57,198 nucleotides of DNA, from positions 1-57,198 of the forward strand of contig CAZXFI010000002.1 in NCBI GenBank assembly GCA_964640225.1, read 5' to 3'. Made by a program: the position numbers and the translations under genes. The notes under the pieces were generated by a model that searched no databases, was not told where the DNA came from, and worked only from the letters and a program-made list of their open reading frames with translations. The stretch's first letter is position 1; the number at the start of each line of letters is the position of its first letter. This document shows positions 3,354-12,475 of the stretch, piece by piece. Source of the stretch: an uncultured archaeon. Its GTDB lineage: Archaea; Aenigmatarchaeota; Aenigmatarchaeia; PWEA01; JAGHBM01.

Positions 3354-3664
3354 CGGTTCTCCCTCTTTTTTAACAGGTCAATTTCAATTTTTGTTTTTTT
3401 CAGTTTCCATATCTTTTCGGGCGCACCGCCGCCTTCCTCCTTATATTCGGCTACATTGATTATACCCGCTTTTTTCAGCTCTGACAAATGAAAGTATAAT
3501 CCTGACAAAGTGATTCCTTCGCCATCTTTACGTAAAAAATCGTGGATTTGCTTTGTGCTTTTGCTACCTTTCCCGATAAAATGAATTATTTCCCATCGGG
3601 TGGGGCAGTGAAGGGCACGTATGTATTTTCTTAGCGGGTTGAAATGACCATTGCAATCACACAT
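3350..3664 (-). CDS. ArsR/SmtB-like winged-helix regulator with N-terminal CxC/His site
   Basis: [11 protein letters not shown]...[25 protein letters not shown] before the ATG. N-terminus MCDCNGH. Confidence 0.85.
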
Positions 3665-3667
3665 TTT

Positions 3668-3719
3668 ATCACCATGATATTACTGTATAATACTATAATA
3701 TCACAGTGATATTTAAAGC
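3668..3719 (-). promoter_or_regulatory. Operator palindrome and TATA box of the ArsR-cupin-ABC operon
   Basis: Perfect ATATCAC-A-GTGATAT (3698-3712) abutting a TTTAAA box, plus a degenerate copy ATCAC-C-ATGAT near 3668-3678. Confidence 0.6.
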
Positions 3720-3899
3720 TTTGTTTAAAGCTAATTTATTTCTTAAAAAACATATAACGGTGTTATATTCCTGCACTTTGAAATTTAGTTCAACAAAATA
3801 ATTATTACAGAACGAGTTATGTTATTTGCAACGCACTGTGTGTAAACATGGGATGCCAAAATAGAGGGATGCTGACTCCGAAGGCTTCCTCAACAAATC

Positions 3900-4806: not shown

Positions 4807-4868
4807 CAAAAGCGCGCAAGGTTTTCTCTGTTTCATGTTTTTAAACCACGGGCACCAAATCTAATTGT

Positions 4869-5366
4869 ATGTTTTACACGGACAGGAGGTTCTTGGCCGG
4901 AATAATCGCGGTGCTGTCGGCGCTTTCAGTCCTGTATTTCTTTCTTGCACCGGACCTGCCTTCGGAAATTGTGGAAACCCTTTCCGGAAGGGACGCCTCT
5001 CTTGGTGAGGAGGAAGAGGAAACCGGACCGGAGGAGTGCCCCACGTGCGGAAGCGGGGAAACCGCGGAAGGAGACTGGGAGGAAAAAGAAGACTCCGGAG
5101 AAGGAGGAGGCGGCGGGGGCGGAGGCTCGGGAGGCTCTGAACTAGGTCCGCAGGGATGCGAGGCCCACACCGGGAACAAGAGGGACTGGTGCTACAGGGA
5201 CCTGGCCCTTGAACAGGGAGACCACACGATATGCCTGAACATAGTGGACGACTACAACAGGGACAGCTGCTACAGGTACCTGGCCATGGACCTGGACGAC
5301 CCCTCCCTCTGCGACTACATAGAAGACGAGTTCAGAAGGGAATGGTGCCACGAGCTCCTGGACTAG
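4869..5366 (+). CDS. Membrane-anchored surface protein with acidic/Gly linker and three Cys-helix repeats
   Basis: N-terminal TM, Glu/Gly-rich linker, repeats C-x6-RDWCY, C-x7-RDSCY, C-x7-REWCH. Confidence 0.7.
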   Translation: MFYTDRRFLAGIIAVLSALSVLYFFLAPDLPSEIVETLSGRDASLGEEEEETGPEECPTCGSGETAEGDWEEKEDSGEGGGGGGGGSGGSELGPQGCEAHTGNKRDWCYRDLALEQGDHTICLNIVDDYNRDSCYRYLAMDLDDPSLCDYIEDEFRREWCHELLD

Positions 5367-7496
5367 AGCTTTTTCTGTTCTTCCTTCTTCTTACCAAACT
5401 GCTCCATTACTTTCTGCGCAATCTTCGGGCCGAGAAGGTCTCCGAGCCTTTCCTTCGGGGCCTTTCTAAGCGAGGAGACCGTGCGGTAGCCGGAATTGTA
5501 GAGTATCCTTGCCCTGGCTCTTCCTATTTCCCTTAGCTTGACGAGGCTCACCAGCTCCTCTTTTATCCCGTATTTCATCCTAGTCCTGATTTTTCTTATT
5601 TTCTTTGACTCCTCCCTGAGCCTGAGCAGGTTGGAAAGCTCCTGGCAGGAGTAAAGGAGCCAGTCTGCTATATCAACCTTTGACCTGAGGCCTCCGGGCG
5701 TGACGCCGTAGTTGTCCATGAGGAAATCCTCCCCTCTTTCGTTCATCCACTCCTCCAGGGCGAGCGCTGTCTTGAAATAACAGAGAAAATTGTCATACTC
5801 CAGGTCCCAGTTGCCCGGTATCTCTATACCAATATCTTCCCTTAAGGCGAGCTTCTCTTCCAGTTTCTCCAACTCGCTTTTTCTTATTCTGAAAGGGCCC
5901 ATTTCGCTGGTGGAGCTTATCAGGAGAAGGTAGTCAAAGCTCTCCAACCCGTGCCTCATTCCGCATATCAGCCTGTGCGCGGTTTCCGGGTCCAGGTAAA
6001 GCTCCGCCACCCTCTTGCCCATTCTTGTCACCTCAAACCCCCGGTCCCTTTTTATGAAATTTTGCTCCTCCAGCTTTTCCACTATGCCGCAAAGCATGTT
6101 TTTTATCCTGGATATGTCCCCGTACTGGTGGGCAAACAGGGTATCGGAGAAAAAATCCATCAGCTGTTCCTCGTTCCTTACCGTGGTCGCTATGAGAGAA
6201 AGCACGTGTGTTCTTAAAACCGGCTCCACCGAAAGCTTTGAGTATATGTTCTCGGCCTCGCCCATGAGGAACCTTTCCGCAAGCTCCTCGGCATCCCTTT
6301 CGTTCCTTCCTATAAGTATGGATTCGCCCTCCCTGTCGTACCTGGGCCTCCCTGCCCTTCCGGACATCTGTTGGTACTCAAGAACAGGGATGTAGACAGA
6401 GCCGTAGCCGGACTGGTATCTCTTGGCGTCCCTTATTATAACTCTCCACGCCGGAAGGTTCACGCCGGCCGCAAGGGTGGGCGTGGCTGACACGATTTTG
6501 ATTAGGTTCTGCCTGAAGTAGTCCTCTATGATTGTGCGCTGGCCGTTCTGCAGGCCCGCGTGGTGGAAGGCGGTGCCGTTTTTCACGCACTCGGCAAGCC
6601 TTCTGCACTGCCTGGTTGGGTGGGAGGGCACGGACAGTATTTTCTCCGAAATGTCTTGCAACAAAACCTTTTCCTCTTCCGTTAGGAATTTTTTGACAAA
6701 CTTCCCCGTTTCCTCCGCGGTCTTTTCCGCGTTCCTCCTGCTGGACAGGAAAATGAGAGCTTGTTTGTCCCTGGACACGGTCTCTTCCGTGAGCAGAATT
6801 TCCCCGGGGTGCCTGCCCCCGATTCCCACGTCCTTCTTCCCGAGAAACCTGATCTTCTCCCCGTCGTAAACCCCCTCATGAAGCTTTACGGGCCTGTAAT
6901 CGGACTTCACCAGTCCGGCACCCAGCCACTCCGCTATGTCAATAGCGTTGCTTATGGTGGCGGAGAGCCCCAGAATCTGGGCCCTGGTGTCCCTCTTTAG
7001 TTTCGTGAGAACCACTTCCAGCGTGGGCCCCCTGCTCCCGTCATTGAGCAGGTGTATCTCGTCTGCCACTATGAGGCCTATTTCCCTTACCCATACGGGA
7101 TTGTGCCTCAAAAGGGAATCCAGCTTTTCCACGGTGACTATAATCAGGTCGGAATTGGCCAGCCAGTTGTCCGAAGAGTCGTAGTCGCCCACCGAGAGCC
7201 CGACTTTTACGCCCAGACTGCGGTACTTTTTGAAATCCTTGTATTTCTCGTAGGCCAGCGCGCGGAGCGGGACGATGTAAACAGCCTTTCCTTTCCTTTC
7301 CATTATTGTTTTTAGGAAGGCAAGCTCGGCTATTAAGGTTTTTCCAGAGGCGGTTGGCGACGCGACCACGAGATTCTTGTAATCAAGAAGCCCCTTTTCC
7401 ACCGACATTTTCTGAGGAGGGTTTAGTTTCGTGATTCCCTCCAGAACAAGCATCTCCTTCGCCTTTTCCGGCATTTTCAGTTCCTTGGTCAGCATG
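5363..7496 (-). CDS. hel308: Hel308/Hjm SF2 DNA helicase
   Basis: Q motif PPQ, SPTASGKT, DEIH, SAT, HHAGL, TPTLAAGVNLP, QMSGRAGRP, C-terminal HhH. Start taken at ATG 7496, with TTTTATAG about 25 nt upstream. Confidence 0.95.
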
Positions 7497-8804
7497 TAGA
7501 TTATTGGAGGATGAGCTATAAAAGGGTTCGTCCGTTTCAAAGGCGGCTATGTTGAAGCTTTCGTGCTTGTGCCTGCACCCCTGCTCCGGGGTGTAAGTGA
7601 ACTCCGCTCCGGAAAACAGGAGCAGGTATGGGGCGTTGCCCAAATATTTTTCTATCCTTTTCTTCTCCTTGAACACGTTTCCTCCAAGGGCCTCCTGCCT
7701 CGCGGCGCACTCCGCAATAAGGCCCAGCGCGGGCTTTTTGGAAAACCCTTTCAGCGCCTCGTCCACAGCCCCTATCATTGACTCGCCGGAGGCGGTGAGC
7801 ATCGTCATTTCCGGGTTGTCTATCCGCCTTCCCATTATTATATAGTCTCCGTAAAACATGGTTGTTATCTCCGGGTAAAGTGCCCCGTCCTTCTCAAAGG
7901 AGGGCAGGACAAAGAAGGCCCTTTTGGTGATTTGCTCGTTTATGACTCCGGGCCTCCAGCCCAGGATTCTCAGGTACTCCTGCCTGGCGGGCTTCCCGTT
8001 TATCTCCTTTATAATCAGTCCGGTTCTGTCCTTTTTGGTCACGGTGAATTTCTTGTCCGTTTTCCTGAATCCGAAGCCTGTGTCCACGTAAACGTCAAAG
8101 TCGGATTTGAGGCCCACGGCAACTATGGAGTTGTTCAGCACTTCCTTTCCGTAAAACTGCCTGTGGCAGGAAAAGTGGATATCGGCCCAGGTGGAGGCGC
8201 CAAGGCCCTTGAAATCCGGCAGAACCTCCATCATGCCTTCCCTGACTTCCTCTTCCCTGCCCATTCCCCAGCCGAATATTCCCATTATGGGAAGCATGAG
8301 CGAGACAAATCTTCCTATTATCTTGCTGTCGCTTGTTTTCCTGTAGCCGAGAACAGGCATTTTCTTCAGGATTGCCCCGGAAGTTATGTCAAAAACAAAC
8401 CCGTTTTTGCAGGGGGATGCCGCGAGCTGCCTCCTGATTTCCTCCCCTGTTTTCCTCCCGGCCTTTTTGGGATTGCCTTTCGTGCCTTTACCGAATGCCG
8501 AGGCCACGTCCATCCGGTCGCACGCCACCGCAAGCATCACTGCGCCCCAGCTGAAACATCCCCGGGGAATCATGAAGCCGGACGTGGTGCCGCCTATAAG
8601 GTGTGTTCCCTCCGGCAGGACCTCCCAGACTCCGTCCAGAAGTTTTTGGTAACCGCCGTTCCTGTAGTACTCGTAGGTGCAGGATAGAATAACGAACCTG
8701 GGTTTGCCCCCGAGCCTGTCCAGCGCGTCCCGCGCAACCTCCCTTCCCGCTTCCTTCGGGTCCCAGTTTCTTGACAACCCTATACCTACTTTTAAGCTAG
8801 TCAT
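7383..8804 (-). CDS. FIST-domain (FIST_N + FIST_C) sensory protein, copy 1
   Basis: LIGGTTSG, KEINGKPA, ECAARQ and FSGAE patterns typical of FIST proteins. C-terminal extension overlaps hel308. Confidence 0.8.
   Translation of the reverse strand: MTSLKVGIGLSRNWDPKEAGREVARDALDRLGGKPRFVILSCTYEYYRNGGYQKLLDGVWEVLPEGTHLIGGTTSGFMIPRGCFSWGAVMLAVACDRMDVASAFGKGTKGNPKKAGRKTGEEIRRQLAASPCKNGFVFDITSGAILKKMPVLGYRKTSDSKIIGRFVSLMLPIMGIFGWGMGREEEVREGMMEVLPDFKGLGASTWADIHFSCHRQFYGKEVLNNSIVAVGLKSDFDVYVDTGFGFRKTDKKFTVTKKDRTGLIIKEINGKPARQEYLRILGWRPGVINEQITKRAFFVLPSFEKDGALYPEITTMFYGDYIIMGRRIDNPEMTMLTASGESMIGAVDEALKGFSKKPALGLIAECAARQEALGGNVFKEKKRIEKYLGNAPYLLLFSGAEFTYTPEQGCRHKHESFNIAAFETDEPFYSSSSNNLHADQGTENAGKGEGDACSGGNHETKPSSENVGGKGAS
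7932..8080. repeat. 149-bp direct repeat shared by FIST copies 1 and 3
   Basis: Identical by eye to 10520-10668 (offset 2588). Confidence 0.9.
8397..8765. repeat. 369-bp direct repeat shared by FIST copies 1 and 3
   Basis: Identical by eye to 10985-11353 (offset 2588). Confidence 0.9.
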
Positions 8805-8808
8805 TGAA

Positions 8809-10101
8809 TCAGCTTTTTTTATGTCCCATTATCGCGGTGTTGTAGGACATGTTTGCGTAAGTGAACCCTCTTTCCGGGGAATAGGTGCCTTCCCCGGTGG
8901 AGAAAAACAAAAGGAAGGGCTTGTCCCTCATATATTTCCTTATTGTTTTTCTTATCTCCGCCACGTTGTTGCCCAGAGTCTGTAGTATGGTTATGCATAC
9001 AGAGAACAGTCCGAACTCCGGTTTCATGCCCTTGAAGGAGGCCATGTTAGTTTCCATGGAGTCTATCAGGCTCTTCCCGCTCATGTTCATTATCCAGGCA
9101 TCTCCCTTATCCACCTTGCACGGCGTGACAATATAATCCTTGAGTACAAGGGCCATAACCGCGGGAACCTCCCGGTCGTGCCTTTTCATGGAGAGGGGAT
9201 AATAGAAAATCTTTAAAAGAAGCGTTTCATCATTCAGGAAACCCCGGGGCCAGTTCAGCAGCCTGCTTAATTCGGGAACGGCCGGCCTGCCGTTTATCTC
9301 CTGGATTATGTGGCCGTCCTTGCTTAACTTCGTTATCTTTAGCTTTACGTTGCTTTTCTTCATTCCGTGGTTTGTAAACACGTCAAAGTCAAGGTCCGTG
9401 GCTATGCCCAGTCCCACGACGCTGTTTTCCAGAACCCTGTTGCCGAAAAACTGGCAGTTGTACATTCCCTTGAAATTGTCCGTGGAGGAGCCCAGAATCA
9501 TGCCGTAATCGGGAAGTTTTTTTGCGATTTCCTCAAAAATTTCGTCCTCTCTTCCGAGGCCTTTCTGCATTAGAATCTGGGAAACGGAAAAAAACTTGGT
9601 TATGGACTTGCTGAGGAACTCGGAGTCTATGACCTTCCTGTAGCCGTATCCCGGTATCTTCAGCACAACAGAACCGGAAACAAAATCAAAGACAAACCTG
9701 TTTCTATACAAGGAATTCTCAAAATCCTCCTCAATCATCCCGATGAATTTTTTCGCGGCTTTTTCCGGGTTTCTCTTGGTCTGCATCCCGTAGCCCATGG
9801 CCACATCCATGTTCGGGTAGGAGACGGCAAGGGCCGTTGCCCCGCGGGTGAAGCATCCGTCCTGGCTTATGAAACCCGGAACAGTCCCCCCTATCAGCGG
9901 CGTTCCCTTCGGCAAAACTTCCCAGACTCCCTCCAGGAACTTCTCAAAGCCTCCGTTATCTTTGTAGTGCACCGTGGAAAACAGAAGAAAGAAATCTGGC
10001 TTAGCACCCAGCCTGTCAAGTGCGTCCTTGGTCACTTCCCTGCCGGCCTCTTTTGCGTCCCACTTCCTAGAGAGCCCCACTGCCGCCTTTGGTTGAACCG
10101 T
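8809..10101 (-). CDS. FIST-domain sensory protein, copy 2
   Basis: LIGGTVPG, QEINGRPA and STGEG motifs. Start is either ACG at 10101 (behind a GGTGA RBS) or GTG at 10080. Confidence 0.8.
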   Translation of the reverse strand, partial: TVQPKAAVGLSRKWDAKEAGREVTKDALDRLGAKPDFFLLFSTVHYKDNGGFEKFLEGVWEVLPKGTPLIGGTVPGFISQDGCFTRGATALAVSYPNMDVAMGYGMQTKRNPEKAAKKFIGMIEEDFENSLYRNRFVFDFVSGSVVLKIPGYGYRKVIDSEFLSKSITKFFSVSQILMQKGLGREDEIFEEIAKKLPDYGMILGSSTDNFKGMYNCQFFGNRVLENSVVGLGIATDLDFDVFTNHGMKKSNVKLKITKLSKDGHIIQEINGRPAVPELSRLLNWPRGFLNDETLLLKIFYYPLSMKRHDREVPAVMALVLKDYIVTPCKVDKGDAWIMNMSGKSLIDSMETNMASFKGMKPEFGLFSVCITILQTLGNNVAEIRKTIRKYMRDKPFLLFFSTGEGTYSPERGFTYANMSYNTAIMGHKKS

Positions 10102-11404
10102 CTAACTCACCTGTTTTGTCGTTTTTGAACACCGCCACGTTGAAGCTCTCGTACTTGTTCCTGCATCCCTGCTCCGGCGTGTAGGTACATTCCCCTCCGC
10201 TGAAAAGAAGGAAGTACGGCGCGTCGCCCAGATAATTTTCTATCCTATCCTTTTCCTTGAACATGCTCGTGCCCAGGGCCTCCTGCCTCGCGGCGCACTC
10301 AGGAATTATGGCAAGCAGGGGCCGGCCGGAAAACCCTTCAAATGCCTCGTCCACCGCCCCTAGCAAAGATTTACCGGAAGCCTTTATTATGGTCATTTCA
10401 GGGTTGTCTATGGTCTTGGCCACTATTATGTAGTCGCCGTAAAACATTCCAAGTACTTCAGGATAGAGGGCTCCGTCCTTCTCAAAGGAGGGCAGGACGA
10501 ATAAGGTTCTTTTCAGGTGTTGCTCGTTTATGACTCCGGGCCTCCAGCCCAGGATTCTCAGGTACTCCTGCCTGGCGGGCTTCCCGTTTATCTCCTTTAT
10601 AATCAGTCCGGTTCTGTCCTTTTTGGTCACGGTGAATTTCTTGTCCGTTTTCCTGAATCCGAAGCCTGCATTGACGTAAGATTCAAGCTCCGACTTGAAG
10701 CCCAGGGCGACTATGGAGTTTTTGTAAACTTCCTTTCCCAGGAACTGCCTGTGGTAGGCGAACCTGCTGTCATCCCAGGTGGAGATACCCACGCCCTTGA
10801 AATCCGAAAGCGCTTTGGTAAGCTCCTCCCTCACGGGGTCGTTGCGTCCCATACCCCAGCCGAAAAGCCCCATGAGAGGCATCGCGAAGGAGACAGCCTT
10901 GGCTATGAATTTGCTTTCTATCACCTTTCTTTTTCCCACCACCGGTATTTTCGGAAGTAGCGCGGAAGAAGTAAAGTCAATAAAAAACCCGTTTTTGCAG
11001 GGGGATGCCGCGAGCTGCCTCCTGATTTCCTCCCCTGTTTTCCTCCCGGCCTTTTTGGGATTGCCTTTCGTGCCTTTACCGAATGCCGAGGCCACGTCCA
11101 TCCGGTCGCACGCCACCGCAAGCATCACTGCGCCCCAGCTGAAACATCCCCGGGGAATCATGAAGCCGGACGTGGTGCCGCCTATAAGGTGTGTTCCCTC
11201 CGGCAGGACCTCCCAGACTCCGTCCAGAAGTTTTTGGTAACCGCCGTTCCTGTAGTACTCGTAGGTGCAGGATAGAATAACGAACCTGGGTTTGCCCCCG
11301 AGCCTGTCCAGCGCGTCCCGCGCAACCTCCCTTCCCGCTTCCTTCGGGTCCCATTTACGGGACATACCCACAACTGCCTTGAATCCTGATAAATTGCTCA
11401 TCAT
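10067..11404 (-). CDS. FIST-domain sensory protein, copy 3
   Basis: Close paralogue of copy 1 with the same motifs. ATGA overlap with the upstream gene. Confidence 0.82.
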   Translation of the reverse strand: MMSNLSGFKAVVGMSRKWDPKEAGREVARDALDRLGGKPRFVILSCTYEYYRNGGYQKLLDGVWEVLPEGTHLIGGTTSGFMIPRGCFSWGAVMLAVACDRMDVASAFGKGTKGNPKKAGRKTGEEIRRQLAASPCKNGFFIDFTSSALLPKIPVVGKRKVIESKFIAKAVSFAMPLMGLFGWGMGRNDPVREELTKALSDFKGVGISTWDDSRFAYHRQFLGKEVYKNSIVALGFKSELESYVNAGFGFRKTDKKFTVTKKDRTGLIIKEINGKPARQEYLRILGWRPGVINEQHLKRTLFVLPSFEKDGALYPEVLGMFYGDYIIVAKTIDNPEMTIIKASGKSLLGAVDEAFEGFSGRPLLAIIPECAARQEALGTSMFKEKDRIENYLGDAPYFLLFSGGECTYTPEQGCRNKYESFNVAVFKNDKTGELDGSTKGGSGAL

Positions 11405-11790
11405 AAGGTATTGCCCTTTTCCAGAAGCTCTATTATACTTTCTCTTGTGTTTTCAAGCTCCACTTCAAGCAGTCCGCGATTTGCCAGGGCCGGTATGAGG
11501 GCAACAAGGGCGGTGTCGGTCTCAGGTAGAATGAAGAAAATAACGTCGTATTTCCCAAGCTCAAAGTAGATCTTGTTGAGCCCGTATGCCGAGTACTCCT
11601 TGATTATGCTAAAGAACTGGTTCATTGTCTTCTCCAGAGAGCCCCATACTCCCTTGAGCTCGGGATCCCTGGATTCCTCTATCAACACGACTCCGTCAAG
11701 CTCCCTCCTGGCCACCATGCAGGCGTAAACGTCTTCAAGCTTGAGCAAATTATTCCTTAATATAGCTTCTATCTCCGTGTTTAAAGACAT
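11401..11790 (-). CDS. Roadblock/LC7 (MglB/profilin-like) fold protein
   Basis: About 129 aa with a helix, beta-hairpin, helix, three strands, helix pattern. Co-oriented between the KaiC-like gene and the FIST genes. Confidence 0.55.
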   Translation of the reverse strand: MSLNTEIEAILRNNLLKLEDVYACMVARRELDGVVLIEESRDPELKGVWGSLEKTMNQFFSIIKEYSAYGLNKIYFELGKYDVIFFILPETDTALVALIPALANRGLLEVELENTRESIIELLEKGNTL

Positions 11791-11794
11791 GCTT

Positions 11795-12475
11795 TTAACC
11801 CGTTACTTCTATGCCCTTGGGACCGAATTTCATTTCCAAAGCCTTCAGCGTGTGGTAAGTTCCGCGCATTTTTCTTATCTTAACCTTTCTGGTGTCCAAG
11901 GCCTCGTGTATGGTCAGTATTATGACCCCATCCACAATGTACGATTCAACCTCTTCAGAAATGTCAACCTCGTCCGACCTTGACTCCGCCATTATCAGCG
12001 TGGTTAGTCCTGCCCTCTTCAGCGCATCGCAAGTGGAGCTCACCGTGAACTTTATGTTGGTTCCTATGAGGTATTCAAGGGTCTGCATGCTGTCTATCAC
12101 TATTCTCTTGGCGTTTATCTCGTCCGCTCTCTCTATTATGAAGGATATAAGGTCTCTTTTCCCTTCCTCAGCGGAGGACTTGTCGTATATTCTTACAAGG
12201 TTCTGCTCTTCCAACTTCTGCAGGTCAAAGCCGAAATTGGCCATGTCCTGCTTCAGTTGGGCAATGTCCTGCTCAAAATTTATGAGAACGCCGGGTTCTC
12301 CGTGTTCCAAAGCTCCCTTGTAAAGAAACTGGACGCCAAAAGTAGTTTTTCCCGTTCCGCAGCCGCCTGCCACAAGCACTGTCCTGGGTCCCGGAGGCAG
12401 TCCGCCTCCCATCTTCTCGTCTAATCCGGGTATACCTATTGGTCTCCTTTCTTCTGCCATACTTATTATTTCCAT
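11795..12475 (-). CDS. Single-domain KaiC/RAD55/GvpD-family RecA-like ATPase
   Basis: GIPGLDEKMGGG, Walker A GGCGTGKT, Walker B IVIDS, DGVIIL and KMRG arginine finger. Confidence 0.9.
   Translation of the reverse strand: MEIISMAEERRPIGIPGLDEKMGGGLPPGPRTVLVAGGCGTGKTTFGVQFLYKGALEHGEPGVLINFEQDIAQLKQDMANFGFDLQKLEEQNLVRIYDKSSAEEGKRDLISFIIERADEINAKRIVIDSMQTLEYLIGTNIKFTVSSTCDALKRAGLTTLIMAESRSDEVDISEEVESYIVDGVIILTIHEALDTRKVKIRKMRGTYHTLKALEMKFGPKGIEVTG

Follow-up and report, generated by a model that had tools for sequence, protein, structure and literature searches.

Identical and diverged segments alternate between two tandem FIST genes of an aenigmarchaeon, a mosaic probably shaped by recent gene conversion

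The stretch of DNA analysed here (the window) comprises 57,198 nucleotides (nt) of contig CAZXFI010000002.1 from a metagenome-assembled genome of Aenigmarchaeota (DPANN), an affiliation in line with the annotation of the same-genus homologue as Candidatus Aenigmarchaeota. It carries an array of three FIST genes, all on the minus strand and arranged in tandem as A' (copy 3)-B (copy 2)-A (copy 1). Copies 1 and 3 form a mosaic in which blocks of perfect identity alternate with strongly diverged segments, and the origin of this mosaic is the subject of the present analysis. The three genes are as follows:

7383-8804, minus strand: FIST copy 1, type A, adjoining the Hel308 gene; open reading frame (ORF) of 473 amino acids (aa), Pfam FIST_N at E 2.3e-20, in synteny with the A-type gene of relatives
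8809-10080, minus strand: FIST copy 2, type B; 423 aa from a GTG start, 40% identical in amino acids to copies 1 and 3
10067-11404, minus strand: FIST copy 3, type A'; 445 aa, an extra copy upstream of B that is absent from relatives with the order B-A

All three genes are located on one 108-kb contig, and no further FIST genes are present in the 1.17-Mb, 91%-complete genome, which is metagenome-assembled and consists of 116 contigs. Copies 1 and 3 share 76% amino-acid identity, and the B-type genes of relatives match copy 2 at 62-70% identity.

The alternation of identical and diverged segments becomes apparent when the window is compared with itself at a constant offset of 2588 nt. The homology between copies 1 and 3 is limited to approximately 7527 and 8790 in copy 1 coordinates and can be divided into the following segments, for the variable ones of which the rates of synonymous (dS) and non-synonymous (dN) substitution per site are given:

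8397-8765, minus strand: Block I in copy 1, a perfect tract of 369 nt covering codons 14-136
10985-11353, minus strand: Block I in copy 3, identical letter for letter to 8397-8765
7932-8080, minus strand: Block II in copy 1, a perfect tract of 149 nt that includes the INGKPA motif
10520-10668, minus strand: Block II in copy 3, identical letter for letter to 7932-8080
7885-7910, minus strand: Block III in copy 1, a perfect run of 26 nt identical to 10473-10498
7687-7712, minus strand: an additional perfect run of 26 nt in copy 1, identical to 10275-10300 and situated on the conserved ECAARQEALG motif
8081-8396 (partner 10669-10984), minus strand: variable segment V1 of copy 1; 65% nucleotide identity, dS 1.42, dN 0.335
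7527-7884 (partner 10115-10472), minus strand: variable segment V3 of copy 1; 73% nucleotide identity, dS 1.18, dN 0.197

The three perfect runs of 369, 149 and 26 nt were recovered exactly where the original prediction, which had been made from the sequence alone, placed them, while the fourth run at 7687-7712 was absent from it. Its further statements that the intervening segments are diverged and that the identity reaches synonymous sites also hold: the diverged segments have 55-80% identity, with 30-nt windows ranging from 47 to 87% in the sliding comparison, and when only third codon positions are considered, the observed runs are 126 and 51 positions long, compared with a permuted maximum of 47. 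For the permutations, the 236 differences of the 1278-nt core were placed randomly 100,000 times; the longest permuted run had a mean length of 29 nt and never exceeded 83 nt, against the 369 and 149 nt observed. Since the observed runs exceed those of every permutation, the two long blocks lie far beyond chance. The two 26-nt runs, which are located on conserved motifs and of which 0.02-0.1 would be expected per 700 nt, are only suggestive as conversion tracts. In total, homogenisation extends over about 45% of the gene, with saturation of synonymous sites in the rest. The word perfect refers here to the dominant assembled haplotype and not to every cell, given the polymorphic patches inside the blocks that are described below. 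Conversion involving copy 2 was also considered and rejected, as the runs it has in common with either of the other copies reach 13 nt at most.

The two paralogues themselves are old. Outside the blocks, copies 1 and 3 differ by a dS of 1.29 and a dN of 0.26 (dN/dS 0.20), and their dN values to G4A, the A-type gene of the same-genus genome G004, are 0.238 and 0.239, respectively. In the variable segments they share 62% amino-acid identity with each other and 63-65% with the orthologues G4A, Z_3 and E27_2, which are the A-type genes of G004, L022 and L027. A tree built from the variable segments does not place copies 1 and 3 together as a resolved sister pair; over the blocks they form such a pair and are identical. 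The GC content at third codon positions is 0.65-0.67 in the three FIST genes as compared to 0.37-0.41 in G004, and with such a large shift within the genus the between-species dS values are inflated. The age of the paralogues is roughly that of the species of the genus, and the origin of the blocks is very recent. This combination of old, diverged paralogues with perfect blocks points to recent interlocus gene conversion between the tandem FIST copies 1 and 3, which very probably gave rise to the mosaic. According to this explanation, non-reciprocal homologous recombination between the two copies, which lie 2588 nt from each other on one chromosome, would have overwritten at least two tracts (369 and 149 nt), and possibly the two 26-nt tracts as well, leaving the blocks identical even at synonymous sites. 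The placement of the tracts would mainly have been set by where the similarity sufficed to start and resolve recombination.

The assignment of the three genes to the FIST family, which had also been proposed in the original prediction, is confirmed by matches to Pfam PF08495 (FIST_N) with E-values of 1e-18 to 2e-20 and scores of 73.7, 69.0 and 68.4 bits, well above the curated cut-off of 23.2. FIST_C (PF10442) is matched by copies 1 and 3 at 20.9 and 22.2 bits, below its cut-off of 28.5, and is not matched by copy 2; despite these sub-threshold scores, the C-terminal subdomain is modelled with the same beta-alpha repeat. The NosP equivalog (NCBIfam NF041558) is not reached, with 40.6 bits over residues 187-295 only and a cut-off of 450. 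Searches of the PDB by single sequence or by profile returned no meaningful matches, and only a fold search succeeded. The AlphaFold2 model of copy 3 (predicted local distance difference test score 86.8, predicted template modelling score 0.86) displays a three-subdomain, pseudo-symmetric FIST fold, and in the PDB its fold is matched best by 8ua6_C, the FIST domain of human FBXO22 (E 1.2e-9), and next by threefold 'Toblerone' enzymes. The FIST domain of FBXO22 consists of three beta-alpha subdomains (A, B and C) related by pseudo-symmetry and binds its partner through subdomain C (10.1101/2024.06.03.596960). The archaeal proteins resemble FBXO22 and NosP in that all three genes pass the FIST_N cut-off and in a predicted fold that is nearest to FBXO22, with three pseudo-symmetric subdomains, but unlike FBXO22 and NosP they stand alone, without an F-box or an output domain. 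When the segments of the mosaic are placed on the AlphaFold2 model, Block I corresponds to subdomain A plus the first beta-alpha unit of subdomain B, V1 to the rest of subdomain B, Block II to the beta-hairpin and helix that link subdomains B and C, and V3 to subdomain C.

Per-sample Logan contigs, assembled with another assembler at k=31, are available for five runs (X1-X5) of one microbial-mat study and contain two patches of clustered substitutions inside the blocks:

8462-8495 = 11050-11083, minus strand: patch 1, in Block I; 14 substitutions, SAFGKGTKGNPKKAGR -> SAVGKNTAGRPKKTGR
8006-8025 = 10594-10613, minus strand: patch 2, in Block II; 9 substitutions, KDRTGLIIKEIN -> KDRTGILVKKIN

The variant of patch 1 is found in X1 and, at a reference to variant depth of 3.3:3.5 (approximately 1:1), in X5. 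For patch 2, X2 and X3 carry the variant and X1, X4 and X5 the reference. As X4, which essentially represents the copy 1 context, and X5, which represents the copy 3 context, both carry the reference, patch 2 is a strain or sample polymorphism and not a fixed difference between the copies. Both patches alter several residues, and some of the resulting states are shared with G4A, namely V and N in patch 1 and the K of the KKIN motif in patch 2; judged by these residues, the patches look like surviving pre-conversion sequence. Because the patches are polymorphic among samples, the tracts are still segregating, and the conversion that had been predicted to be ongoing is accordingly recent and not yet settled in the population. 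We infer that the process is indeed ongoing there and that it takes the form of conversion rather than of another type of recombination.

The FIST genes of relatives are part of a conserved cluster that consists of a divergently oriented thymidylate kinase gene, a gene for a KaiC-like ATPase, an ORF of 128/129 aa, the FIST genes and Hel308. The immediate neighbours of the array in the window are:

5363-7540, minus strand: Hel308/Ski2-type archaeal helicase (Pfam DEAD, Helicase_dom4_arc and HHH_5), directly downstream and conserved in the position 3' of the A-type FIST gene
11401-11790, minus strand: ORF of 129 aa without a family match, one of the two upstream genes of the conserved cluster
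11795-12475, minus strand: KaiC-like ATPase (Pfam PF06745, E 1.4e-51)

The 129-aa ORF is kept between the KaiC-like ATPase and the FIST genes in every relative, and a search with four orthologues gave no Pfam or NCBIfam match even at E = 10. Two FIST genes, B followed by A, are found in four relatives, L027, L028, L029 and G004, the cluster of the latter being read across two contigs that overlap by 59 nt. This B-A arrangement in the relatives identifies A' (copy 3) as the extra A-type gene. One other lineage, L022 (ZINK19-1 scaffold_551), has the order B-B'-A, and its tandem B-type genes share a perfect 5' block of 235 nt (3500-3734 and 4829-5063, codons 8-85). B and B' are 69% identical in amino acids, with a dS of 2.4 and a dN of 0.25 outside the block, and the Logan contigs L023 and L024, from two other runs, begin exactly 30 nt before the end of the block. 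The block in L022 is a parallel case of conversion, independent of that in the window. In G003, contig C54 opens with 55 nt (L021 1-55) that are identical to the interior of a FIST gene on contig C53 (L020 329-383), at about codons 102-120. This identity suggests a collapsed third 5' block, with which it fits without proving it.

Why the tracts lie where they do is a separate question. The original prediction had inferred that conversion homogenises a scaffold while possibly ligand-specifying segments stay distinct, a proposal that gains little from the data: the unconverted segments are under ordinary purifying selection (dN/dS 0.24 in V1 and 0.17 in V3, 0.20 overall), and conservation among A-type orthologues is barely higher in the blocks (Block I 0.66, Block II 0.62) than in the segments between them (V1 0.57, V3 0.61). 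V3 is unconverted although it equals Block II in conservation. Since conversion needs near-identical DNA to start, the placement of the tracts can be explained without selection, and the mechanistic reading, in which conversion is started and resolved where the copies are most alike, is the simplest. An alternative is that concerted evolution is selected, such that subdomain A and the linker between B and C are kept identical for a common partner (the KaiC-like ATPase, the 129-aa protein or each other) and that selection removes conversions that would erase B and C, the sites of distinct specificity. This seems unlikely, although it can draw on several observations. Block I, which corresponds to subdomain A, is the segment most conserved between A and B types (0.51 versus 0.30-0.37), the partner of FBXO22 binds subdomain C, which is unconverted here, and subdomain A also carries an independent 5' block in L022 and possibly one in G003. 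Against it stand the dN/dS values of 0.17-0.24 in the unconverted segments, which give no sign of diversifying selection, and the near parity of the blocks with V3 among A-type orthologues. Moreover, two or three overlapping tracts are statistically not compelling, and a higher degree of conservation is in itself enough to promote the initiation of recombination. A broader proposal is that conversion is recurrent across Aenigmarchaeota and preferentially retained in subdomain A, making the FIST arrays modular sensors with a homogenised docking subdomain for the KaiC-like ATPase and the 129-aa partner, while B and C diverge freely to provide each copy with its own specificity. This proposal is rather doubtful; were it true, the polymorphic patches would represent segregating recombinant alleles under selection.

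With regard to the mosaic itself, the polarity of events could be reversed, with copy 3 being a very recent exact duplicate of copy 1 and the diverged segments having been imported later into one of the two by recombination with DNA of other Aenigmarchaeota lineages. It is true that neither copy is clearly the native orthologue, each being about as similar to G4A, Z_3 and E27_2 as to the other copy, and that the tree is unresolved. Such a history is nonetheless very unlikely, as it requires at least three separate imports of DNA that is just 65-73% identical, and the anchors of these imports would have to equal the recipient sequence, yet identity to orthologues in Block I reaches only about 68%. 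In addition, the 5' leaders and the 3' tails differ between the copies, the mosaic pattern is repeated in B and B' of L022, and the variant patches resemble residual old sequence within the blocks and not the reverse.

It is highly improbable that the paralogues are diverged throughout and that the identical blocks were created during assembly by graph collapse or a chimeric path. Such an artefact would be compatible with a metagenome assembly of 116 contigs, with the popped bubbles that are present inside both blocks and with the breaks at the FIST cluster in the assemblies of relatives. However, the same graph was obtained in the five per-sample assemblies by a different pipeline. Their Logan contigs stop exactly 30 nt inside every block border, and the two blocks form separate shared nodes of exactly 369 and 149 nt with up to about twofold depth. 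In X1, the depth is 53.8x for the 369-nt node and 48.9x for the 149-nt node, as compared to 25.6-32.4x for single-copy neighbours. The branching at the borders together with the raised depth of the blocks speaks against a chimeric assembly. Beyond the 34-nt and 20-nt patches, neither block is seen in any other, diverged version, and X4 and X5, two samples of low depth which cover only the copy 1 flanks and only the copy 3 flanks, respectively, carry the same Block II sequence. The contig from X4 spans 7217-8765 and thus runs from Block II through V1 of copy 1 into Block I, and the X5 contig 10355-10830 crosses Block II in the copy 3 context; these two contigs show that the variable segments have been assigned to the right copies. 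A single unitig at flank depth (8736-10549) leads from the beginning of copy 1 across the complete copy 2 into the 3' portion of copy 3, and the A'-B-A order is thus physical. An assembly chimera, which the original prediction had named as a refutation, was not found at the level of the blocks in these independent assemblies, and the identity of the blocks holds in all five at k=31 resolution, at contig level and with the patches unphased. The repeats had also been predicted to allow deletion of copy 2 by recombination. This is mechanistically possible with direct repeats of 369 nt, but there is no sign of it, as no joints were reported and copy 2 is present at flank depth (26.6 versus 26.5 and 27.6; 42.4 versus 42.1 and 42.2). 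A 30-mer of Block I had no match in the scanned metagenome contigs of the Joint Genome Institute (JGI), and the exact copy 1 protein had no record in public assemblies.

Programmed variation, in which a cassette-type (pilE/pilS-like) system or a diversity-generating retroelement rewrites short patches of the FIST genes, is the least probable of the explanations considered: clustered, mostly non-synonymous patches (14 substitutions in 34 nt and 9 in 20 nt) that are polymorphic among samples and a reverse transcriptase encoded in the genome are what such a system might leave, but neither the variant patches nor FIST fragments occur elsewhere in the assembled genome, and the substitutions are of all types and not adenine-specific. 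The search for patch donors allowed up to 3 mismatches, and blastn-short and tblastn revealed no FIST fragments outside 7300-11500 in the 91%-complete genome. The sole reverse transcriptase is encoded outside the window, at 572-1570 of contig C41, a 2.2-kb GC-rich contig with masked stretches. By eye, its YADD motif and maturase-like C-terminal part make it look like a group II intron type enzyme, and no template repeat resembling FIST was found by the gene. The lack of a donor, the absence of adenine specificity and the apparently intron-type reverse transcriptase together make programmed diversification unlikely. The reverse transcriptase gene is unrelated to the FIST locus and may be a binning stray.

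Several points weigh against recent conversion between old paralogues. An approximately unbiased (AU) test does not formally reject a clade of copy 1 and copy 3 (p = 0.137), and the variable segments are compatible with a duplication either before or after the split from G004. The position of A' upstream of B requires at least two rearrangement steps, and either copy may have been the donor of the conversion. In X2, the depths of the blocks are 70.6 and 58.1 as compared to about 42 in the flanks, which amounts to a ratio of 1.4-1.7 and is less than the twofold depth (about 84); branch depths back-calculated from mean contig depth in this sample gave inconsistent values. Lastly, the patches were read at contig level, unphased to copy. 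Patch 1 could be a real difference between copy 1 and copy 3 that was collapsed by bubble popping, in which case Block I would split into tracts of about 65 and about 270 nt. The mosaic stands whichever way patch 1 is read.

The phenomenon is ordinary concerted evolution, which is well known. The tufA/tufB genes of Salmonella and rRNA operons undergo RecA-dependent gene conversion, with identity at synonymous sites and tracts of tens to hundreds of nt, and these pairs are homogenised over nearly their whole length under strong constraint. In contrast, the FIST pair is homogenised over less than half of its length and is synonymously saturated elsewhere. An archaeal precedent is provided by mtrA-1/mtrA-2 in the mtr operon of Methanococcales and Methanomicrobiales, for which partial gene conversion has been described (Wang et al. 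2015, PMC4632066). As in the FIST array, these are paralogues in one archaeal operon of which one part is homogenised and the other remains distinct, and the pattern recurs in separate lineages. The two systems differ in that the unconverted part of mtrA is an acquired transmembrane domain, whereas the FIST segments are all homologous and the mosaic lies within one fold. Furthermore, the FIST tracts are perfect and polymorphic and hence very recent. Short segmental conversions that lead to mosaic genes and heterogeneity in the population are also reminiscent of pilE/pilS in Neisseria and vlsE in Borrelia. However, no silent cassette library is present here, just two full-length and apparently functional copies, the FIST proteins are of a cytoplasmic sensor type, and nothing points to a programmed mechanism.

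As a clean and well-controlled case, the locus illustrates how paralogues evolve partly in concert in a DPANN archaeon whose genome measures about 1.2 Mb. It shows that homologous recombination between repeats as short as 150-370 nt operates in such reduced genomes. In relatives, blocks of this kind break up or distort the assembled locus, and they mislead whole-gene phylogenies and the dating of the duplication. The mosaic also hints at which FIST subdomain is interchangeable between paralogues, and provides no direct functional evidence on the KaiC-like/FIST/Hel308 cluster.

A number of minor features of the array concern the ends of the genes. Copy 1 lacks a stop codon where its orthologues of 422-425 aa end and continues for approximately 50 extra residues (7383-7540). 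Its core ends near 7527, and the tail, which has no counterpart in the orthologues, overlaps the start of Hel308 in another frame; it is either a real extension or the result of a lost stop. Copy 2 lacks an ATG start (10060-10110): its conserved leader (..KAAVG) is in frame just after a TAG, the sole possible start is the GTG at 10080, and the tail of copy 3 overlaps this region in another frame. The region around the start of copy 2 looks like a scar left when a rearrangement brought A' to its place upstream of B. The leader of copy 3 contains GMS, as in most B types, and that of copy 2 contains GLS, as in A types. These leader residues may reflect a past crossover within the conserved 5' region, an indication that concerns a single residue and is not conclusive. 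Outside the window, a weak tblastn match (E 4e-5) to the N-terminal 75 residues of copy 2 is located at 97440-97664 of contig C1 and may represent a distant relative of FIST subdomain A.

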